In this document: one piece after another, positions 1,670 to 23,990 of the stretch
How positions within the stretch are numbered: the stretch's first letter is position 1
How the letters are laid out: every line of letters starts with the position of its first letter
NCBI GenBank assembly: GCA_964527545.1
Contig: CAZGQF010000001.1
Coordinates: forward strand, 148,019 to 212,018
Length of the DNA: 64,000 nt
Direction: 5' to 3'
DNA from: Candidatus Undinarchaeota archaeon
GTDB taxonomy: Archaea; SpSt-1190; DYHY01; CAZGQF01
The notes under the pieces: model-generated
Seen by the model: only the letters and a program-made list of their open reading frames with translations
What the model was told of the DNA's origin: nothing
Database searches by the model: none
Program-made: the position numbers and the translations under genes

Positions 1670-3568
1670 ATGAGGCGGGGACTGATAGGGCTCCAGACCA
1701 TCATCTTGCTCTTGAGCCTCGTCTCCATGGTAGCCTTCCTGACCATGAGGGACGAGCTGAGGGGCATTGTCTACCAGCTGCCGAGGGTGGCCTCCAGCTA
1801 CCGTCCCAAGTTGCAGAGGATCTGCGAGGAGGGGCAGGACGAAGAATACGTTACCCTGCCAGCGCCGCCGCCAGGCGTCGTCATACTGATGGACAACTGC
1901 GACTCCATCAACAAGAAGTCCATAACGCGCACCAGCATCAAAGTCGCCTACACCGTGGCCGCCATCCTTGATGTTAGGAATAGCATAAAGAATCTTGGAG
2001 TTGTCAAAGAAGCGGCAACTGGCCTCACACTGTGGCAAAGCGTAGAGGGCATCAGGAGGGTTGCTACTGTAGTGAGAACAGTCTGGCCGGTTGCGGTGCC
2101 CATCACGCGAGGTGTGGTCTGGTCGATAGCGATGCAGTTCGACCCAAATCCAGACGAGATACTTTCGCAATACGAGGCGGCGGTGGAGGACACCAGCCTC
2201 GTCTTCGCGAGGATCTTGAATGAGGGTAGCTCAGTCATAAGGGTCCCAGTCGGCGTGGATGAGACAATAATCGTCTCCTCCTACACCTCAAGCGCGGCAG
2301 ACTTGGAAGATGACACTGCAGTCCTGGCTGCAGGAAAGGCCCAGAGCTCCATGCTCGCCAACTACAAAACGCTGAACAGCCTCCTGACCACACTCTTCCT
2401 CTCTTTCAACGACAAGCCCTATGCCGACGCCCACTTCGTCGAGCTCGGGAGCATGAGTCACACCTTCGTGGAGATAGACGGAGAAGTCACTCTCAGACCA
2501 GACCACGCAAAGCGGCTCTTCAACGACTTCGCCAGGAACGCCAAGGACATATGTGACGAGTCTGTGTCGGAGGCAGACAGAGACCATCCTGAATATCAGA
2601 CGCTCTTCTCGAGATGCCAGACGCTGGAGGACGCGCTAGACGACAGAACGCTTCTCCTCAAAGACCAGGACATAGTCCTCGCCGCAGACAACCTCGACCC
2701 CTGGAAAAACGTGACCGCATACATCTCTGACGTCGTCCCCTTAATGGAAGAAGCCTGCGAGGCGCAGAAGACCGTTCTTGGCGAGGGGTGGGATGAGAGC
2801 TCCAGAAAGAACCTCTGCAACTATGAAAGCTTCGTCAGCTCCAAAGTCAGGTCGATCCAGAGCGAACTGGCAGACGCAAGCGATAACTTGAGAACTATGA
2901 AGGCGGCGAGGGGGTCTGTAAAGAGCGTCCTGAACAAGGACTTCGTGACAAAGAAGGACGAAGCATCCACTCAAGGTGTGGATGTGGAGGCAGTCAACGT
3001 CACACAGGGGATAGTGGAAGGCCGATGTGTGGGGACGGAGATCGACCTGCACGACGACGACGGAAACGTACTCACCAACCTAAGAATTCCCTTCTGCGCA
3101 TTCCAGATCAGTTGCCAGGAGGACGACCTCACCACTATGGGCTACGAGGAGAGTTGCATGGCACAGCTGATCAACATAAAAGACGAGAAATACCCATTGG
3201 GCGGGGACTTGGTATCCATAGATGCAATGCCTGCCGACAAGCTCGATCTCTCAACAGCCCAAATTCTTGGCGGCTATTTCGGGAGGATAGCGACAGGATT
3301 CGCAAGGGGGTTTGAGAGCGCATTCGCCGGCTTTTCGGCAATACCACTGTACGGCCAGAACTGCGGCGGGGGAGGGGACGCAAAAAAGAAGCTGGTCTTC
3401 TGCCTTGAAGCAGAGGAAGGATGTTTGGCAGCTGACGTTAACTGCAGGTTCTGCTACACTTTCAGCTGCAACGTGCCCGTCTATACCACTCCACAGCCGA
3501 GGTTTGGTATCTCCATGCAGCACACTGGAGACGAGCTGCTCGTGAAGGGCAACTTCCTGCCTATGTAG
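1670..3568 (+). CDS. hypothetical large extracellular protein, N-terminal anchor (MRRG/LIGLQTIILLL), Cys-rich C-terminus
   Basis: 632-aa ORF. N-terminal RRG followed by a hydrophobic helix. C-terminal cluster of Cys (CGGGG..CLEAEEGC..CRFCYTFSC). Confidence 0.4.
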   Translation: MRRGLIGLQTIILLLSLVSMVAFLTMRDELRGIVYQLPRVASSYRPKLQRICEEGQDEEYVTLPAPPPGVVILMDNCDSINKKSITRTSIKVAYTVAAILDVRNSIKNLGVVKEAATGLTLWQSVEGIRRVATVVRTVWPVAVPITRGVVWSIAMQFDPNPDEILSQYEAAVEDTSLVFARILNEGSSVIRVPVGVDETIIVSSYTSSAADLEDDTAVLAAGKAQSSMLANYKTLNSLLTTLFLSFNDKPYADAHFVELGSMSHTFVEIDGEVTLRPDHAKRLFNDFARNAKDICDESVSEADRDHPEYQTLFSRCQTLEDALDDRTLLLKDQDIVLAADNLDPWKNVTAYISDVVPLMEEACEAQKTVLGEGWDESSRKNLCNYESFVSSKVRSIQSELADASDNLRTMKAARGSVKSVLNKDFVTKKDEASTQGVDVEAVNVTQGIVEGRCVGTEIDLHDDDGNVLTNLRIPFCAFQISCQEDDLTTMGYEESCMAQLINIKDEKYPLGGDLVSIDAMPADKLDLSTAQILGGYFGRIATGFARGFESAFAGFSAIPLYGQNCGGGGDAKKKLVFCLEAEEGCLAADVNCRFCYTFSCNVPVYTTPQPRFGISMQHTGDELLVKGNFLPM

Positions 3569-3574
3569 GCCTGA

Positions 3575-4567
3575 CTACTCTTCTTCCTCTTTCTCTTTCT
3601 TCTTCTCTTCGCCCTCCATCATCTCGCCCGCCTTCTTGAGGGCCATGGGGTAGAGGGCGCCGCCCATCTTCTCAGAGTGGTGGGTTGACGAGGAAGAGAG
3701 GTTCTCTGCCAGCTTGGCGAACTCCATGGGGAAGAAGACCTTGCTTCCCTTGCCCTCGGAGATTTTCGGGAGCGCCTCCTTCACGTAGAGGTAGCCGAGC
3801 GCCCTCTCGTCCAGCTTGCGGGTCGCGTCGGCGAGGGCCTCTATCACTGTCTTCTGGGCCCTGGCCTCGTACTGGGCAGTGGCCCAGTCCTCCTTGGCCT
3901 TCCTTCGGCGGTGCATCGCCTCCTGGATGGTCTCGGGCACAGAGATGTTGGTTATGGCCACATCGATTATGTCGATCCCCCACTCGTGGGTGAGCGGCTC
4001 TATCTTGACCTTCACTATGTCGTTTATTTTCTCTATCTCGGCGTAGAGCTCGTTGAGAGTGAGGTCGCTCGCTATGTCGCGCAGGGCCGCGTAGACGTAG
4101 CCGCTGACTGTCTCCTCGAACTCGCGGACTTTGAGTATCGCCTTTGCTGGGTCGAGTATTTGGTAGTAGACGATTGAGTCGATTGTGGTCCTTATCTCGT
4201 CGCTTGTGATGATGGGCTGTGGCGGCAGGTCGAACGACTGGACGCGCAGGTCGACCACCCTCATGTTCTCGAGGAGTGGGACGAGAAATACCCAGCCGGG
4301 GCCGGCGATCCGGTGGAAGTGGCCCATGCGGAAGACGACCGCCCTCTCGTACTCGTTGATCTCCCTGATGAGGGAGGACTGGCGGAGGACCTGTATGACC
4401 AAAACGACCGCTGCGACCGTGAGGAGGGCGTATGTCGCCTTCTTCATCACGGGGACGAAGTAGGCGACGACGGCGAACATGATGAGCAGCATGAAGATTG
4501 TCTCTATGCGTGCCTGCATGAACGAGCGGACGACCTGGAATTGGGATTTAGCCATACACGCCTTCAC
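3575..4567 (-). CDS. SPFH/band-7 (stomatin/prohibitin-like) membrane protein
   Basis: N-terminal TM followed by an SPFH-like core (VVFRMGHFHRIAGPGWVFLVP...ITSDEIRTTIDSIVYYQILDP...). K/E-rich C-terminal tail. Confidence 0.75.
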   Translation of the reverse strand: MKACMAKSQFQVVRSFMQARIETIFMLLIMFAVVAYFVPVMKKATYALLTVAAVVLVIQVLRQSSLIREINEYERAVVFRMGHFHRIAGPGWVFLVPLLENMRVVDLRVQSFDLPPQPIITSDEIRTTIDSIVYYQILDPAKAILKVREFEETVSGYVYAALRDIASDLTLNELYAEIEKINDIVKVKIEPLTHEWGIDIIDVAITNISVPETIQEAMHRRRKAKEDWATAQYEARAQKTVIEALADATRKLDERALGYLYVKEALPKISEGKGSKVFFPMEFAKLAENLSSSSTHHSEKMGGALYPMALKKAGEMMEGEEKKKEKEEEE

Positions 4568-4659: not shown

Positions 4660-5256
4660 TCACGACATCTTGTTGATGGAGAAGAAGTGGCCGAAGAAGT
4701 GGAAGTAGACCTTCTCCCTGTCGAACTTGTGGAGGACGATCTTTCTCTCGTTCCTGTACATCGTGTCGCCGAAGAACTTCTTTACCACGGAGTCCATCAA
4801 GTCGCGGATCCTCGTAGCCCTCGACTCAGTGGGGTCGTAGATGCAGGAGCTGGCGATGACGTCCTTGGCCATCATGAAGTTGAGGAGGTACTTGTCCATC
4901 GCCTCCTTGAAAGGCCCCCAGACCTCCGCCTCGAATGCGTTGTCGCTGTGCTTTTTCTGGTTGTGGACAAAAGTGACGGCGAACTTGTCGACGTAGACGC
5001 GGACCTTGAAGTGTGGCGAGATCATCAGCTGCTTCAAAAGCTTCTCGTCCAGTGCCTTTGGGCTCTCCCTTATCTCAGTCCCTCCCTGCGTCTCGTAGCC
5101 GACCTCCATCGGCTTGGTGGACGCGAGGTTGATGGAGCGCTTGCTGCCGGTGTAGAAGATGGAGGTGAGGCGGTTGATGATGGCGAGGATCTGCTGCTTG
5201 GCCTGCGGGCCGGTTATGGTGGTCCCGTAGGTCATCCTGTAGATCAGCTCGCCCAT
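4660..5256 (-). CDS. hypothetical protein
   Basis: 198-aa ORF with lower-GC codon usage consistent with coding. No recognisable motif. Confidence 0.35.
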   Translation of the reverse strand: MGELIYRMTYGTTITGPQAKQQILAIINRLTSIFYTGSKRSINLASTKPMEVGYETQGGTEIRESPKALDEKLLKQLMISPHFKVRVYVDKFAVTFVHNQKKHSDNAFEAEVWGPFKEAMDKYLLNFMMAKDVIASSCIYDPTESRATRIRDLMDSVVKKFFGDTMYRNERKIVLHKFDREKVYFHFFGHFFSINKMS

Positions 5257-5286
5257 AGCTTCTCTCGGCAGTGAAGCTATTTAAAA

Positions 5287-6294
5287 TTGGCGTCCAGCCG
5301 GAGGGGGATGGGCGAGGGTTGCGGACTTGACGAGGACGCGGAGAGGCTCTCGGCCTGTTCCGGCGAACTCTCTCTCGGCTGCAAGCTCTGCGCCCAGGGC
5401 GCGAAGATGGTCCTCTTCGTGACTGGCGTCTGCGGGAAAGGCTGCTTCTACTGCCCAGTCTCCTTCGCGAGGAGGGGGGACCAGCCCTTCGCGAACGAGA
5501 GGCCAGTGAAGAGCGTGGAGGAGGTCTTGGAGGAGGCGGAGAGGACGGGGGCGAAAGGCGCGGGGGTGACTGGAGGCAACCCCCTCGCAAGGCTGGAGAG
5601 GACATGCCTCTACGTCTCAAGGCTGAAGGAGGCTTTCGGCCAGGGGTTCCACATCCACGTCTATCTCCCGGAGGCGGACGAGAGGGAGCTGCTCGCCCTC
5701 GACAAGGCAGGCGTCGACGAGGTGAGGTTCCACTGGGGAGACCCGGGGAAGGCGGCAGAGTTCGCGTGGGATGTGGGGGGCGAGGTGCCTGTGGTCCCAG
5801 GCTGGAAAGAGAGGACAAAGAAGTTCCTGGATTTGCTGGAGAAGAGGGAGGCGACTTTCTGCAACCTCAACGAGCTCGACATCTCCGAGAGCAACGCGGC
5901 GGAGCTGGGCAGGCGCGGCCTGACGCGGAGGGAAGCGAGGAGCTTCGGCGTGGGGGGTAGCGAAGAGCTGGCCATGGAGATCCTGAAGAAAAAGAGGGCG
6001 CTCTCCATCCACTACTGCTCCAGCGCCTTCAAGGACGCCATCCAGCTGAGGAGGAGGTTCATCAGGACTGCCGCCAGGGTGGCGGAGGGCTTCGAGGAGG
6101 TGACAGACGACGGGACTGTGGTCTCCGGGGTCTTGGAAGGCAAGGTCGATCTTGAGGAGCCCCACTATTTTTGGGAGGGCGAGACCTTCTGCGCCCCGGA
6201 GGTTGCGAGGAGGATGGCTAGGGAGAGAAGAGCGAAGATTGTCGAGTGGGTGCCGACGTGGGACAGGGAAGTGAGGGAAGTCACTCCCCTTTAG
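5287..6294 (+). CDS. radical SAM domain protein
   Basis: CGKGCFYC (CxxxCxxC) cluster near the N-terminus. Extra N-terminal cysteines (CKLC). Glycine-rich SAM motif (GVTGGNP). Confidence 0.6.
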   Translation: MASSRRGMGEGCGLDEDAERLSACSGELSLGCKLCAQGAKMVLFVTGVCGKGCFYCPVSFARRGDQPFANERPVKSVEEVLEEAERTGAKGAGVTGGNPLARLERTCLYVSRLKEAFGQGFHIHVYLPEADERELLALDKAGVDEVRFHWGDPGKAAEFAWDVGGEVPVVPGWKERTKKFLDLLEKREATFCNLNELDISESNAAELGRRGLTRREARSFGVGGSEELAMEILKKKRALSIHYCSSAFKDAIQLRRRFIRTAARVAEGFEEVTDDGTVVSGVLEGKVDLEEPHYFWEGETFCAPEVARRMARERRAKIVEWVPTWDREVREVTPL

Positions 6295-10856: not shown

Positions 10857-10870
10857 CCTTCATGCTCCCT

Positions 10871-12139
10871 TTACTTGGACACCACGTCGATTACCATGCC
10901 GGCGGCGACCGTCTGGCCCATGTCGCGGATTGCGAACCTGCCGAGTGGCGGTATGTCCTGCCTCTTCTCCAGCACGAACGGCTGGGAGGGGACGCACTTC
11001 ACTATCGCCACGTCTCCCGTCTTCAGGAAGTCCGGGTTCTCCTCCTTGACCTCGCCGCTCTTCGGGTCGAGCTTCTTGACCAGCTCCGTGAACTGGCATG
11101 CGACCTGGGCGGTGTGGGCGTGGAAGACCGGCGTGTAGCCCGCCGTTATGACGGTCGGGTGGTTGAGAACCGCTATCTGGGCGGTGAACTCCTTGACCAC
11201 CGTCGGCGGATTGTCGACCCTGCCTGCCACGTCGCCGCGCTTCACGTCCTTCTTGGAGATTCCGCGCACGTTGAAGCCCACGTTGTCGCCGGGAGTCGCC
11301 TCCTTAAGCTGCTCGTGGTGCATCTCTATCGTCTTGACCTCGCCCTTGGCGCCGCTCGGCATGAAGACCACGTTGTCCCCTACCTTGAGGACTCCTGTCT
11401 CCACGCGGCCGACGGGCACGCATCCGACGCCGGTTATGTTGAAGGCGTCCTGGATGGGCACGCGAAGCGGCAGGTCGACAGGCTTCTGGGGCGCCTCGAA
11501 GTCGTTGAGGGCCTCTACCACTGTCTTCCCCTTGTACCAGTCGAGTTTGTCGCTCTTGTTGACCACGTTGTCGCCCATCAAACCGGAGGCGGGGATGAAC
11601 TCCACCTTCTCGAGGTTGAAGGAGACGCTCTTCAGGACATCCTTGACCTCTTTCATGACCTTGTTGAAGACGTCCTCCTTGTAGTCGACTGTGTCCATCT
11701 TGTTGATGACCACCAGCATCTGCTCCACGCCCAGCGTGCGGGCGAGGAAGATGTGCTCCTTGGTCTGGGCCTGGACGCCGTCCTTGCCCGAGACTACGAG
11801 AATCGCAGCGTCGGCCTGGGAGGCGCCGGTTATCATGTTCTTCACGAAGTCCCTGTGGCCAGGGGCGTCGATCATGGTGAAGTAGTACTTGTCGGTATCG
11901 AACTTCTCGTGCGCCACGTCGATTGTCAGGCCGCGCTCCCTCTCCTCTTTCACGCGGTCCATGACGTAGGCGAACTCAAAAGTCGATTTTCCGAGCTCCT
12001 TCGCCATCTCCTTGAACTTCTTCATCTGCTGTTCAGATACGTTGCCGGAGTCGAACATCAGCCGACCCAGCAGTGTGGACTTCCCTGCATCCACGTGTCC
12101 TATGAACACCAGGTTCATGTGCGGTTTCTCGCTTGCCAT
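10871..12139 (-). CDS. tuf: translation elongation factor 1-alpha (aEF-1A)
   Basis: [10 protein letters not shown]1 motif, [12 protein letters not shown]. 422 aa. Confidence 0.95.
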
Positions 12140-12174
12140 ATCAGTTTCACCTATCCACTGCCGAAAAACAGCGG

Positions 12175-12183
12175 TTTAAATAA
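12175..12183 (-). promoter_or_regulatory. TATA-like box (ttatttaaa on minus) about 40 nt upstream of the EF-1alpha ATG, with GGTGAAAC Shine-Dalgarno
   Basis: Only AT-rich element in the 60-nt EF-2/EF-1alpha spacer. Confidence 0.3.
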
Positions 12184-12199
12184 GTTTTCAACTCCGCGC

Positions 12200-14395
12200 C
12201 TAGAGGTAGGTGGTGGGAGGTATCTCCTCCTTCCTTCCCTTCCTCTTCCGTATCTCCAGTATCTTCTCTTTCTGGAGGTTCTTGGGCATCGGCTCGAAGT
12301 TGGTCTCCTTGAGAGACCAGAAGCCGTGGCCGTTGGTGGCGGAGCGGAGGTCGCTTGTGAAGCCGAACATGTTGTCGACAGGCATCTCTGCGATGATGAC
12401 CACCATCCCCCTCTCAGTCTCTATGTTGGCGACCTTCCCCCTCCTCGACTGGACGAGCGACGTGGCAGCCCCCATCTTCTCCTGAGGTGTGTCTATGCGG
12501 ATGGTCTGTATCGGCTCGAGCAGCATCGCGCCGCCCGCCAGCATGCCAGCCTTTATGGAGTCCCTGACCGCGGGAACGACCTGCGCGGGGCCGCGGTGGA
12601 TGGAGTCCTCGTGGAGCTTCGCGTCCTCCAGGGAGATCTTCAGCTTGGCGCACTTCTCAAGTGCGAGCGGCCCCCTGTCCATCACGTCCTCGAATCCTGT
12701 CTTGATGTGGTCCATGACCTCGTTGAGGGCCACTATGCCGCGGGTCATGTTGAGGAGGACGCAGTCGTTGTAGATCTGGATGGTCCTCTTCGCCTCGTCC
12801 TTGCTGAAGCCGCGCTCGACGAGCTCCTCCCGTACCCTCTCGTCCTTGTCCTTCCTGAACTCCATCTCCGGGATGTCGCCCTCCTTGATGGCCTGGTAGA
12901 CTTCGTCCTCGAGTGGCTCGACCTTCAAAAAGAAGCGGTTGTGCTTGTTGGGCGACTTGCCCTCGAAGGGCCCGCCCTCCCCTGCCACGGTCTCGCGGAA
13001 GACCACTATGGGCGGCGACGTATTGACTGGTACGTTGTAGTCGCGCTCCAGGCGGTGCTGCCAGATCTCGAGGTGGAGCTCGCCCATACCGCTGACCAGG
13101 TGCTCGCCCGTCTCCTTGTTGATGTCGACCTTCACAGTGGGGTCCTCGCGCGAGATGGAGATGAGGGCTTCGACGAGCTTCGGGAGGTCCCTCGCCTTCT
13201 TCGCCTCTATCGCCTTCGTCACGACAGGCTCGAAGATGTGCTTTATCGCCTCGAAGGGGTCGAGGTCGTCGACGGAGGTCACAGTCTCGCCCGCAGAGAT
13301 GTCGTCCATGCCGACGAGGCCGATGATGTTGCCTGCAGGTATCTCCTCGACCGAGACGCGCTTAGGGCCCTTGTAGACGATGAGCTGGGGGATTCTCGCC
13401 TTGGTGCGGACGTTGACAAGGCTGACTGTCTCCCCCATCTTGATGGTGCCTGAGAAGAGGCGCGCGCAGGCGACCTGCCCTGCGTGCGGGTCGTTGACTA
13501 TCTTGGTCACGCAGGCGATCTCCGGACCTTTCGGGTCGCAGGCCATCATCGCCTTTCCCTCCTTGGAGTCGAGGTTCCCCCTCCAGAGCCGCGGTATCCT
13601 GTACTTCTGCGCCTCTTCCGGGCCTGGCATGTGCTTTATGACCATGTCGAGGAGGACCTGATGCAGCGGCGCCTTCTCTTCCAAGACTTCCCAGCCGCCC
13701 TCCTTCTCGTAGGCGTCGAAGATGTCAGTGAACGTGAGGCCTGTCTTCTCCATTATGGGGAGGTTGATGGCCCAGCGGTGGACGGCCGAACCGAAGCCGA
13801 CAGAACCGTCCTGTATGGCGACCTGCCACTCCTTCTTGTACTCCTCCGGCGCTATCTTGTAGATCAGGCGGTTGACTTCAGCTATCTGCCTGCGGAACCT
13901 CTCCTGCATCTCCTCTGGGGAGAGCTTCAGCTCCTTTATGAGGCGGTCGACCTTGTTGATGAAGAGGATTGGCTTAACGCGCTCTCTCAGCGACTGTCTC
14001 AGTACAGTCTCAGTCTGGGGCATCACACCCTCGACTGCGCAGATGAGGACCATGGCGCCGTCGACTGCCCTCATCGCCCGCGTCACGTTTCCGCCGAAGT
14101 CGACGTGGCCGGGCGTGTCTATCAGGTTGATGAGGTACTCCTCACCGTCGTAGGAGTGGACCATGGAGATGTTGGCGGAATCGATTGTAATGCCCCTCTC
14201 CTGCTCCTCCTCGTCCAGGTCGAGAAACCTCGCCTCCCCTGCCAGCTTCTCGCTCAGCATCCCCGCGCCCGCCACGAGCGTATCCGCGAGGGTCGTCTTT
14301 CCGTGGTCGATGTGAGCGCAAGTAGCGATGTTCCTAATCCTGCTCCTGTCATGCATCAGTGAGAGAATCTTATCCTTCATGTCTGCTTTTGCCAT
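12200..14395 (-). CDS. fusA: translation elongation factor 2 (aEF-2)
   Basis: AHIDHGKTT G1 motif, 731 aa, EF-G/EF-2 domain order. Confidence 0.95.
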   Translation of the reverse strand: MAKADMKDKILSLMHDRSRIRNIATCAHIDHGKTTLADTLVAGAGMLSEKLAGEARFLDLDEEEQERGITIDSANISMVHSYDGEEYLINLIDTPGHVDFGGNVTRAMRAVDGAMVLICAVEGVMPQTETVLRQSLRERVKPILFINKVDRLIKELKLSPEEMQERFRRQIAEVNRLIYKIAPEEYKKEWQVAIQDGSVGFGSAVHRWAINLPIMEKTGLTFTDIFDAYEKEGGWEVLEEKAPLHQVLLDMVIKHMPGPEEAQKYRIPRLWRGNLDSKEGKAMMACDPKGPEIACVTKIVNDPHAGQVACARLFSGTIKMGETVSLVNVRTKARIPQLIVYKGPKRVSVEEIPAGNIIGLVGMDDISAGETVTSVDDLDPFEAIKHIFEPVVTKAIEAKKARDLPKLVEALISISREDPTVKVDINKETGEHLVSGMGELHLEIWQHRLERDYNVPVNTSPPIVVFRETVAGEGGPFEGKSPNKHNRFFLKVEPLEDEVYQAIKEGDIPEMEFRKDKDERVREELVERGFSKDEAKRTIQIYNDCVLLNMTRGIVALNEVMDHIKTGFEDVMDRGPLALEKCAKLKISLEDAKLHEDSIHRGPAQVVPAVRDSIKAGMLAGGAMLLEPIQTIRIDTPQEKMGAATSLVQSRRGKVANIETERGMVVIIAEMPVDNMFGFTSDLRSATNGHGFWSLKETNFEPMPKNLQKEKILEIRKRKGRKEEIPPTTYL

Positions 14396-14470: not shown

Positions 14471-15427
14471 CTACTTGCTGGCCTCTGCCTGGCGTTCCAG
14501 GTTGTTCTTCCTGCTGACAGAGAACGACTCAGTGTCGTTCTTGGAGGCGAGTATCAGCTCCTCCACGAGGGCGTCGACCAGTTCCGGCTTCTTCTTGGCC
14601 GCCTTGACAGCCGCCCCCTTCGCTATGAAGCTGAGCGCGAGGTCGAGGCGCCTCTGCGGCGCGACGTCGACGGCGATCGGGTGCCTCACTCCGCCGTACT
14701 CGACCGTGGTAATCTCCGCTCTCGGTGCTGAGTTCACGACAGCGTCGACCAGGACCTGTATGGGGTTCTTCTTTGTCTTCTTGGCGACCCTGTCGAAGGC
14801 CTCCTCGATGATGTAGAGTATCTTTGTCTTCTTGCCTGTCAGCTGGCGGGTCGACCAGATGTGCTTCTTGCCCGCCTTCTGGTGGCCCGTGACCATCAGC
14901 TTGTTGGCGAGCCTCTCCACGAGGTTGACCTTCCTCTTCCAGAACCTGTGGGCGGAGTGGCGGCCGTGGGAGTGGGGGACGACGCACGGCTCCAAGTTGA
15001 CGTAGTCAGCTATGGACTGGTCGCCGACTGCGACCTCCGAGAAGTCGTACTTGTTGAAGAGCTTGAAGTCGATCTTCGGCCCCTTTTTCTTGGGCGTCTC
15101 CTTCTTCTCCGCCTCTGGCTCCTCCTTCTCCTCTTTCTTGTTTTTCTTTTCGGCCTTCTTTTTCGATTTTGATTCCTTTTTTTCGGCTTTTTCCTTCTTC
15201 TCTTTCTTCTCCTCGGACTTCTCCTTCTTCTCCGGCTTCTTCTCTTTGGCCTTCTTGGACTTCTTCTCCTTCTTCTCTTCCTTCTTCTCTTCCTTCTCCT
15301 CGGACTTCTCCTTCTTCTCCGGCTTCTTCTCTTTGGCCTTCTTGGACTTCTCCTCTTTCTTCTCTTCCTTGGGCCCCTCTTTCTCTTCTTTCGTCCCCTC
15401 TTTTTCTTCCTTGGTCGGGGGGCTCAT
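14471..15427 (-). CDS. rps7: 30S ribosomal protein S7 (uS7) with roughly 120-aa Lys/Glu-rich N-terminal extension
   Basis: C-terminal 190 aa is canonical uS7 (KLFNKYDF...PHSHGRH...). The ATG at 15427 overlaps the S12 stop (ATGA). There is no in-frame ATG/GTG/TTG near the canonical S7 N-terminus, so the KEKE extension is translated. Confidence 0.85.
15211..15384. repeat. 87-bp direct tandem duplication (2 copies) inside the rps7 extension
   Basis: cctcggacttctccttcttctccggcttcttctctttggccttcttggacttct recurs at 15211 and 15298. Encodes [19 protein letters not shown] twice. Confidence 0.7.
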
Positions 15428-15861
15428 CTCAGCTTCTTCTCCTTCTTTCCCGCGAGGATGGCTGGCAGGGAGACGCCGTTGACAGCGATGACGTGCCAGC
15501 GGACACCTGGCAGGTCGCCCCTCGACCTGCTCTGCCTGCCCCCTATTCTCTCTATCAGCACTTCGTCGTGCTCGTCGATCTGGTTGATTGCGCCTTCGCC
15601 CGTGCAGAAGGCAGTGACCTGCTTGCCGTTCTTGATCAGCTGTACGCGGACGCACTTGCGTATGCCAGAGTGCGGCTGCTTCGCCTCCACGCCGACCTTC
15701 TCGAGAACGAGGCCCCTCGCCTGTGGAGCGCCCTCAAGGGGGTCTGCCTTCTCGCGGGTCCCATAGAGCTTCTGGACGAAGGACTTCTTGTTCTTCCTGA
15801 ACTTCGACCTCCTTTTCTCCAGTTTGCGGGCCGCGAACAGGCCTTGGGGCTTTTTGCTCAT
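15424..15861 (-). CDS. rps12: 30S ribosomal protein S12 (uS12)
   Basis: 145 aa. ...[20 protein letters not shown]... conserved uS12. Confidence 0.9.
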
Positions 15862-16277
15862 TTTTCTATCTCCACCTTCTCTATGTCGCCGTAGTGGCGT
15901 GCGAGGAACGTTTTCATCCGTTTAAGAAGTTTTCCCTTGTCGCTCTTCAAGAGGTAGCGCGCCCTGCTCTTGGCGTGGACCACCAAAACGCCATCCCTCA
16001 TCTCCACGCCCTCCGGCTCCGCGGGCGATGCGAGGTTGAGGGCGAACTTCTCGAAGGTGTCTGAGTACTCGACAAAGTCGACCCTCTTCTTCAGGAGGCG
16101 GGAGAGCTTCCTCACGTTCTCGCCGCCCTTCCCTATCGCCATGCCCATCTGGTCGGAGGGGACGGCGAAGGTGACGTAATCGTCGACGACGCAGTCGACT
16201 GCGTGGGCGCCGGTGGTCTTCTGCAGGAGGCCGATGCACTTGATTGCCTCCTTTGAGAGCTTGGCCACTTCACTCAC
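15858..16277 (-). CDS. nusA: archaeal NusA-like KH-domain transcription termination factor
   Basis: 139 aa with two KH-like segments ([13 protein letters not shown]). Conserved position between L30e and S12. Confidence 0.8.
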
Positions 16278-23603: not shown

Positions 23604-23784
23604 TCGTCCGCAGGTCGGGACGACGTCCGTGGAACTCCGGTAAAGTGAGTGTGACCGGCCCCAGAAAATTGGGGCCGGTCTGGGGAGGGAGCTTGAGAAG
23701 TTTCTTGAGGCATTGAGAGGGGCTGGAGGGGCTGTGTCTGAAAAGAGAGGGCATGGCTTTGCGGCGAGGGCCCTACGTGGGGAG

Positions 23785-23872
23785 TGGGCCCGACGGGATT
23801 TGAACCCGCGACATTCTGGTTTCTTCCCTTGGGGTAAAAGCCAGACGCTCTACCATGCTGAGCTACGGGCCC
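23785..23872 (-). tRNA. tRNA-Lys(TTT) with 14-nt intron at the canonical 37/38 position
   Basis: Acceptor GGGCCCG/CGGGCCC. D-arm GCTC..GAGC. Anticodon stem TCTGG/CCAGA with loop CTTTTAC interrupted by CCCAAGGGAAGAAA. T-arm GCGGG TTCAAAT CCCGT. Discriminator A. Confidence 0.8.
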
Positions 23873-23887
23873 GAGAGAGGGGGAGAG

Positions 23888-23990
23888 CGCCCCGGCCGGG
23901 ATTTGAACCCGGGTCAGGAGCTCGACAGGCTCCCATGACTTGCCTTCCTGCTCTTTCCGGGCAAGAATTAAGCCACTACACCACCGGAGC
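23888..23990 (-). tRNA. tRNA-Asp(GTC) with roughly 28-nt intron at a non-canonical D-arm position
   Basis: Acceptor GCTCCGG/CCGGGGC (one G-U). Discriminator G. Anticodon arm GGAGC CTGTCGA GCTCC. T-arm CCGGG TTCAAAT CCCGG. 103 nt in total. Extra sequence TCTTGCCCGGAAAGAGCAGGAAGGCAAG lies between D-loop AGTGGCTTAAT and TCATG. Confidence 0.6.

Follow-up and report, generated by a model that had tools for sequence, protein, structure and literature searches.

The 64-kb stretch of archaeal DNA analysed here (the window; part of contig CAZGQF010000001.1) carries at 14471–15427, on the minus strand, a complete gene for ribosomal protein uS7 (rps7), which the list of open reading frames (ORFs) and the sequence define as 318 codons followed by a TAG stop. 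The product of 318 amino acids (aa) is found identical in an NCBI-derived protein collection, on a contig of 487,924 bp. It consists of a uS7 core (residues 117–318; 14474..15079, minus strand) and a Lys/Glu-rich N-terminal extension encoded by codons 1–116 (15080..15427, minus strand), which composition and AlphaFold2 mark as a predicted disordered region and which we call the tail. We consider it likely that the protein is a genuine uS7, in which a normal archaeal core is preceded by a disordered tail of about 116 residues with mixed charge and a net positive balance, that this tail has grown by repeats, and that it is placed on the 30S subunit and makes contacts as proposed below.

The core matches the Pfam family PF00177 (Ribosomal_S7; E = 3.4e-33, 114.8 bits against a cut-off of 24), with residues 149–318 lying on profile positions 11–148 of 148. 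Residues 120–318 align with the archaeal chains 6tmf_I, 6sw9_H, 4v4n_BH and 6skf_Ai (E = 8e-50 to 2e-48) from chain residue 13 or 14 through 213–215, and the alignments with the solved uS7 chains of Pyrococcus and Thermococcus ribosomes include the archaeal/eukaryotic N-terminal part that is absent from bacterial S7. The best solved archaeal and eukaryotic chains align from query residue 118–122 to the C-terminal end. AlphaFold2, supplied with an alignment of 50 sequences, predicts a folded core with a pLDDT of 85–97. The gene also occupies its usual place in the cluster RpoA'-RpoA''-L30e-NusA(KH)-S12-S7-EF-2-EF-1alpha-S10, which lies entirely on the minus strand in the canonical archaeal order. 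By sequence and predicted fold, the core is an unambiguous uS7 family member of the archaeal/eukaryotic type, as the first-pass annotation had proposed. That annotation set the beginning of the core at about residue 125, which is too far downstream; the solved-chain alignments and the pLDDT profile place the beginning of the conserved part at P117/K118, at a junction conserved within the clade, and the 'KLFNKYD' motif begins at residue 122.

The tail contains 52 Lys (45%), 37 Glu (32%), 7 Ser, 7 Pro (6%) and 5 Ala (4%), no Arg and no Asp, which gives residues 1–116 a net charge of +15. AlphaFold2 with the same alignment models residues 1–118 as coil with a pLDDT of about 50. A KEKE motif comprises at least 12 residues, begins and ends with K, E or D, contains more than 60% K plus E/D, lacks W, Y, F and P and has no five like charges in succession. 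Four segments of the tail (residues 6–17, 20–35, 37–64 and 66–103) are of this kind, since they contain 83–89% K/E over at least 12 aa, have K or E at both ends, are free of W/Y/F/P and contain no stretch of five like charges; the earlier description of the tail as a KEKE-type low-complexity extension thus agrees with the compositional definition. The very high, alternating content of E and K is also reminiscent of ER/K single alpha-helix (SAH) domains. An SAH domain is unsupported by the AlphaFold2 coil prediction, which has no helix within residues 1–118 at a pLDDT too low to exclude transient helicity. SAH domains alternate in blocks of about four residues, in contrast to runs of 1–2 in the tail, and the tail is broken by Pro, Ser or Gly every 10–38 residues, which argues against one long helix.

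No second K/E-rich stretch occurs in any of the six frames across the window, and the S12, L30e, S10, EF-2 and EF-1alpha proteins are of ordinary length, which rules out a genome-wide K/E bias. The composition of the tail therefore belongs to the uS7 gene and not to the genome. Within the tail, the coding strand is 49% A, 35% G and 3% T, so that open frames on either strand are uninformative here. More telling is the distribution among codon positions: position 2 is 78% A and 3% G, and only 4 codons beginning with AG or GG (Arg/Ser or Gly) are observed, compared with an expectation of about 39 under free exchange of purines between positions. This frame-specific composition is, as far as sequence can tell, a signature of coding at the amino acid level in the annotated frame. 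AAG and GAG, the preferred codons, have a share of 0.73 in the tail and of 0.85–1.00 in the uS7 core and neighbouring genes; for AAG in the neighbouring genes the share is 0.93–1.00. The weaker preference in the tail fits a younger or less constrained sequence. The RNA of the tail region does not fold beyond chance (z = -0.52) and has no Rfam match, and a regulatory RNA or leader was rejected on these grounds. Long ORFs also run over the tail on the plus strand (15012–15482 and 15169–15894); they were dismissed as genes and are regarded as by-products of a coding strand with 3% T.

Start site of the tail and its conservation in the clade

Codon 1 (ATG at 15427–15425) is the sole in-frame ATG, GTG or TTG before codon 145 (TTG, 14995), which falls within a block of uS7 that is conserved in all homologues. 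The N-terminus of the core is therefore reached either from 15427 or from a non-canonical codon. The ORF coordinates and the sequence show that the ATG shares a 4-nt ATGA (15424..15427, minus strand) with the TGA stop of the uS12 gene, and this overlap implies that translation of uS7 would be coupled to that of uS12. The view that the ATG at 15427 is the only plausible start is upheld, and judged from the reading frame the tail must be translated, beginning at the ATG that overlaps the S12 stop.

The window belongs to a clade that otherwise comprises L001 (protein P0002), L007, and L008 with L009, of which L007–L009 were found through their EF-2. The clade is rare, being represented by one NCBI contig (488 kb) and a few Logan contigs; the EF-2 proteins of the relatives on Logan contigs are 84% and 80% identical to that of the window, and the next best matches are Altiarchaeota metagenome-assembled genomes (MAGs) at 61–65%. 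Altiarchaeota MAGs are the nearest named relatives by both EF-2 and uS7 (55–65% identity). A scan of JGI metagenomes with the core alone returned no close member of the clade, with a best identity of 51%.

The tail is present in all four sampled members of the clade, and the four tails are mutually unalignable. Even in the closest relative, P0002 of L001, where the core is about 75% identical, the tail cannot be aligned with that of the window. The tail of L001 comprises 111 codons, is rich in K, E, A and V and has no stop in its own frame, compared with 4 and 14 stops in frames +1 and +2; S12 and uS7 overlap by the same ATGA. The uS7 genes of L007 and L008 run off the ends of their contigs, leaving 44 and 56 tail codons without an in-frame ATG, GTG or TTG, and three of the four clade members have no start codon near the core. 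Among the four members, conservation sets in no earlier than position -5 counted from KLF, at the junction (K/T/G)-P-(K/A)-hydrophobic-x-hydrophobic-KLFNKYD. Upstream of it, the alignments indicate that only the presence of the tail, its open frame and its charged composition are retained. The first-pass annotation had asked whether the tail is specific to the lineage when compared with related archaea. The answer is divided: the tail occurs in every clade member without sequence conservation, yet tails recur in other lineages, as described below.

These comparisons bear on a possible internal start. The only candidate for a non-canonical one is the ATC of Ile119 (15071..15073, minus strand), as judged from the in-frame codon list, the N-termini of homologues and the clade comparison. 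Normal-length homologues begin exactly there ('MEPKLF' of P0003, 'MEIKLF'), and a Shine-Dalgarno-like AGGGG lies 6 nt upstream. A normal-length uS7 could accordingly be the main product, initiated at codon 119 (15073–15071), with the upstream 354 nt serving as a leader or being rarely translated; the readable AGGGG-N6-ATC speaks for this, as does the short form that NCBI annotates in a Thermoplasmata lineage keeping the core ATG. We nevertheless regard such initiation as very improbable. To our knowledge ATC is not an established archaeal start codon, yet here the synthesis of an abundant essential protein would depend on it. The codon at this position is ATC in the window and L008, TTT in L001 and CTC in L007, so that no internal start is conserved in the clade. 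The upstream region is frame-specific in composition and open in frame in all relatives, its ATG is coupled to the S12 stop, and its RNA, structured no more than by chance, gives no sign of a regulatory leader. An internal non-canonical start giving a normal-length S7, which the first-pass annotation had named as a refutation of its claim, is thus disfavoured by the tails without starts in L007 and L008 and by the lack of conservation at the equivalent of ATC119. This codon is probably the vestige of an ancestral start, whose Met would have drifted to other hydrophobic residues once the tail had become obligatory.

The conserved junction also bears on the fate of the translated tail. The tail could be removed after translation, as a pro-peptide or a built-in chaperone for solubility or assembly comparable to the ubiquitin fusions of eS31 and eL40, leaving a mature uS7 of normal length. 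As the only conserved element adjoining the tail, the junction might conceivably be where processing takes place; the tail shows no constraint on its own sequence, and cleaved N-terminal fusions on ribosomal proteins have a precedent (excerpt of PMC5027506). We find removal quite improbable, however, because no protease or recognisable cleavage motif was identified and because the junction aligns with the N-terminal residues of ordinary short uS7 proteins, which makes it more simply a part of the core.

Repeat growth and recurrence in other archaea

Tandem Repeats Finder (TRF) detects an array at 15191–15370 with a period of 87 bp, 2.1 copies and 96% matches, within which periodicities of 42 bp and 21 bp are nested and are read as older. 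Comparison codon by codon resolves unit 1 (codons 20–48; 15284..15370, minus strand) and unit 2 (codons 49–77; 15197..15283, minus strand), which are identical at 84 of 87 positions; the three differences are one synonymous change and two exchanges between E and K. The longest exact run shared by the units is 59 nt (15351–15293 = 15264–15206). Shuffling the codons of the tail gave longest runs of 15.7 ± 2.3 nt, 27 nt at most, and 59 nt was not reached in any of 1000 shuffles. The 87-bp tandem duplication described earlier is therefore real, in frame and recent, but it is not perfect. The array, the near-identical 29-codon units and the shuffle test together support the claim that the tail expands by recent in-frame duplication.

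Other uS7 tails contain tandem repeats as well, with units of 10–42 residues and 70–100% identity between adjacent copies. Two pairs of proteins are otherwise 100% identical and differ in repeat content only, by one additional 19-aa unit (P0243 and P0404) and by 52 aa of additional units (P0271 and P0407). These differences are either copy-number polymorphism or repeat mis-assembly, and on the sequences compared the region is unstable in its repeats either way.

The frequency of tails was estimated in a survey blind to the tail, in which 80 metagenome loci were retrieved by core peptides only and the frame was followed upstream from KLF. Most loci start 1–26 codons upstream of KLF, and 8–9 of the 80 have tails of 55–105 codons (L054, L060, L072, L079/L082, L089/L090 and L092), several of them without a start near the core. 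About one in ten archaeal uS7 loci in this sample is tailed, and the feature is recurrent rather than unique. Among the 120 best matches in a 90%-identity collection, about 20 exceed 240 aa and have N-terminal regions rich in K, E, P and A. A search of representative sequences gave 58 of 78 near-full-length matches with an overhang of more than 40 aa; this ratio was not used as a frequency, because clustering is assumed to favour the longest gene call and because fast-evolving tails split clusters. A scan of genome contigs with the full-length protein was swamped by low-complexity peptide patterns and returned five distant relatives. Across lineages, tail lengths range from 40 to about 250 aa. 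A crude neighbour-joining tree of 226 cores contains 15 all-tailed clades of at least two sequences and requires a minimum of 33 state changes, which suggests many independent gains or losses of the tail, in a number that is inflated by differences between gene calls and by the poor resolution of the tree.

Among named lineages, tails occur in a Thermoplasmata cluster whose protein has 394 aa and, in shorter form, in Micrarchaeales; an Iainarchaeum locus (L002, 2986–3792) has a possible tail of about 70 codons and keeps an ATG at the core. Three further loci were followed at the DNA level (L010, L011 and L012). They have the S12-S7 order, as does L001, and their long form begins 10–15 nt after S12. 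In L011, a tail of 165 codons has codon 1 as its sole start; in L012, the start nearest to the core lies 100 codons upstream; in L010, an ATG is kept at the core. This last gene (2501–3685; Thermoplasmata, P0029) is entered at NCBI as 184 aa from the core ATG (HDD59392.1, P0390) and elsewhere as 394 aa. Its long form starts 15 nt after S12, and the 210 intervening codons are open, while the other frames have 3 and 13 stops. An Iainarchaeum-like tailed group (L002, L054, L072, L089, L090, L092 and P0249) has a motif of the form FVKKxSxFxEYKLF(N/D)KW upstream of the core, which suggests that part of the extension is under sequence constraint in this group; the motif is absent from the tails of the window's clade. 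The earlier statement that such extensions are unusual in archaea thus needs qualification. The solved structures, with at most about 40 residues before the core, and the majority of loci, with 1–26 codons, support it, whereas the 8–9 tailed loci among 80 and the tails of up to about 250 aa in other lineages do not.

Recurrence and repeats also allow an artefact to be weighed, namely that uS7 was joined, through a frameshift or assembly error, to a small ORF upstream or to a repeat that had been collapsed or expanded. The assembly is of the metagenome type, tandem repeats are easily mis-assembled, and the differences in copy number seen elsewhere could partly be errors. The tail ATG overlaps the S12 stop, however, and leaves no room for a separate ORF. 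Four independent assemblies in the same clade, from the different sequencing runs ERR14788039, SRR7811709, SRR28370467 and SRR28370465, have a tailed uS7; an 87-bp unit with a 59-nt exact core is expected to lie within a typical short-read span; and the same architecture occurs in dozens of other lineages. An artefact is hardly credible on this evidence. The merger of an upstream small ORF by a frameshift, which the first-pass annotation had considered, is specifically disfavoured by L001, an independent assembly with the same ATGA overlap and an open tail of 111 codons.

Proposed origin and role of the tail

We propose that the tail arose, and would still be remodelled, by slippage or unequal recombination where the gene is rich in AAG and GAG, at its very 5' end. 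Loss of the ancestral start, now the ATC of Ile119, would then have made the tail obligatory. From that point selection would act mainly against frameshifts and stops and in favour of a soluble, non-aggregating K/E composition that excludes Arg, Gly and hydrophobic residues.

In the 30S subunit of Pyrococcus abyssi, uS7 forms one wall of the chamber that holds the mRNA exit and the Shine-Dalgarno duplex (PMC7005279), and in eukaryotes the N-terminal region of Rps5 has Rps16/uS9 close by and can be cross-linked to eIF2-alpha (PMC9958902). In archaeal as in eukaryotic uS7, the N-terminal part would accordingly adjoin the mRNA exit/Shine-Dalgarno chamber, the E site, uS9 and (a)IF2-alpha. The tail may extend like a flexible tentacle from the 30S head on its solvent side, and a net-positive arm of 116 residues could reach the mRNA upstream of the E site, rRNA helices of the head or aIF2. 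Weak, sequence-independent electrostatic contacts with RNA (the 5' region of the mRNA, or rRNA) or initiation factors would be its most likely role, in preference to a specific function that depends on a fold.

Several points weigh against this proposal. The structures from which the path of the tail is extrapolated, those of Pyrococcus and eukaryotes, have at most about 40 residues before the core, and a contact with RNA or factors is deduced from charge and position only. The AGGGG-N6-ATC at the start site of short homologues may permit low-level internal initiation in the window. In L001 an in-frame ATG lies 20 codons ahead of the core, and L010 and L002 keep an ATG at the core; short isoforms may occur in all three. 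The rapid turnover of the tail sequence is equally compatible with no function at all.

This last point leads to an explanation that is quite possible, although on balance we doubt it. The tail would be translated and retained without function, as a neutral by-product of expanding repeats at a solvent-exposed terminus that was locked in by loss of the start, in the manner of a constructive neutral ratchet. The unalignable tails next to cores that are about 75% identical are as expected from it, as are the weaker codon bias of the tail, the range of lengths from 40 to 250 aa across lineages, the differences in copy number between otherwise identical proteins and the vestigial start that reads ATC, TTT, CTC and ATC in the four clade members. 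Neutrality accounts less well for tails gained at the same terminus in many separate clades, as in the 15 all-tailed clades of the crude tree. The compositions also converge on K/E/P/A and exclude Arg, Gly and hydrophobic residues, although purine-rich mutation would yield Arg and Gly codons, and one group keeps the junction motif FVKKxSxFxEYKLF. The repeated gains, the composition and the motif suggest that there is at least selection on composition, which falls short of proving a function.

A bolder extension of the proposed contact role would make the N-terminus of uS7 a recurrent 'expansion site' of the ribosome. Charged, disordered and rapidly evolving arms of 40–250 aa would have grown there independently in many uncultured lineages, among them the Altiarchaeota-like clade, Micrarchaeales, Thermoplasmata and Iainarchaeum-like archaea. 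Being flexible, polycationic or of mixed charge, and close to the mRNA exit/Shine-Dalgarno chamber and aIF2-alpha, such arms would help to capture or position mRNA or initiation factors. We think this generalisation unlikely. If it holds, the tail would be the protein counterpart of rRNA expansion segments or, alternatively, a functional analogue of the mRNA contacts made by bacterial bS1 or eukaryotic eS26/eS17.

Irrespective of which account is correct, the tails constitute a ready-made series in which to study whether archaeal initiation is modulated by charged disordered arms close to the mRNA exit, and how an essential protein may come to retain new sequence through repeat expansion and loss of a start codon. 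The inconsistent annotation of uS7 starts in public data, with 184 and 394 aa for one and the same Thermoplasmata gene, affects the lengths of marker proteins and proteome predictions.

Comparison with known extensions and the surrounding locus

The closest known likeness is the extension of eukaryotic uS7 (Rps5), which is located on the same protein and at the same terminus and is likewise a variable, irregular extension before a conserved core. The yeast extension, when truncated, affects 48S complex formation, the dependence on elongation factors and fidelity (Galkin et al. 2007, RNA 13:2116, as cited in an excerpt of PMC9958902). The two differ in length, with about 15–40 residues before the aligned core in solved eukaryotic Rps5 structures, at most about 40 in the PDB alignments of all solved archaeal and eukaryotic uS7, and 116–120 here. 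They also differ in charge, the yeast extension being acidic while the window tail is mixed K/E with a net charge of +15. No PDB chain aligns to query residues 1–107, all alignments starting at residue 108 or later. Because nothing in the PDB alignments covers the tail, the tail and the Rps5 extension are, on the sequence comparison, independently acquired analogues and not homologues.

Charged low-complexity additions to the termini of other ribosomal proteins include the histone-H1-like tails of mosquito RpS6 and RpL23a (Hernandez & Fallon 2007, as cited in an excerpt of PMC11764897) and the Ala/Lys-rich C-terminal region of about 25 aa in uS19 of Parcubacteria (PMC9297842). Like the tail described here, they are restricted to lineages, evolved independently and have no established function. 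They differ in that they concern other proteins or termini, that none is archaeal and that they are K/A/P-rich (H1-like) rather than K/E-rich. The window tail (K 45%, E 32%, P 6%, A 4%) lies outside the K/A/P-dominated, histone-H1-like class; some other tailed uS7 proteins belong to it, for example P0042 ('KKPAAKKPAAKK').

A further likeness is with the snoRNP proteins Nop56, Nop58 and dyskerin (box C/D and H/ACA), which have lysine-rich disordered domains of K, E and D that act by electrostatics (excerpt of PMC11528048). Both cases, as far as this excerpt goes, place long K/E(D) disordered regions on conserved proteins of ribonucleoprotein particles for ribosome synthesis or translation. The snoRNP domains differ in being C-terminal, eukaryotic and tied to nucleolar condensation.

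The composition of the four tail segments is that of KEKE motifs, which Realini, Rogers and Rechsteiner reportedly described in 1994 with a proposed role in protein-protein association; these motifs are a compositional label and not a homologous family. The literature searched contains no description of long archaeal uS7 tails, a weak negative as subscription journals were mostly uncovered. The tail belongs with the lineage-specific charged low-complexity extensions of ribosomal proteins, and no new kind of system is called for. Long disordered terminal extensions are said to distinguish eukaryotic from archaeal ribosomal proteins (excerpt of PMC6131548), and an archaeal uS7 tail that exceeds every uS7 extension in the solved structures about threefold in length runs somewhat contrary to this contrast.

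The uS12 gene (15424..15861, minus strand; Pfam PF00164, E = 1e-41) lies directly upstream of uS7 and encodes a protein of normal length (145 aa). Directly downstream, after a gap of 75 nt, lies the EF-2 gene (12200..14395, minus strand), as identified by its Pfam domains and ORFs. In the relatives, one or two ORFs of 115–149 aa on the opposite strand are located between uS7 and EF-2 (L001 2271–3057, L007 738–1094, L008 764–1186), where the window has only this gap; the position appears to be a variable insertion spot within an otherwise conserved cluster. The intergenic ORFs of the relatives have no Pfam match, and the one pair compared, from L007 and L008, shows no similarity. L008 also carries a ParE-toxin/MazE-antitoxin-like gene pair directly downstream of S10 (5183–5697).

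An ORF of 863 aa on the plus strand of the window (10862–13453), antisense to EF-1alpha and EF-2, is read as a by-product of codon and strand composition and not as a gene. Farther along the window, tRNA-Lys(UUU) and tRNA-Asp(GUC) genes adjoin at 23784–23990 on the minus strand. The tRNA-Lys(UUU) gene spans 89 nt and probably contains an intron, and the end of the second tRNA is placed at 23990 (103 nt) by Rfam and at 23962 by ARAGORN.

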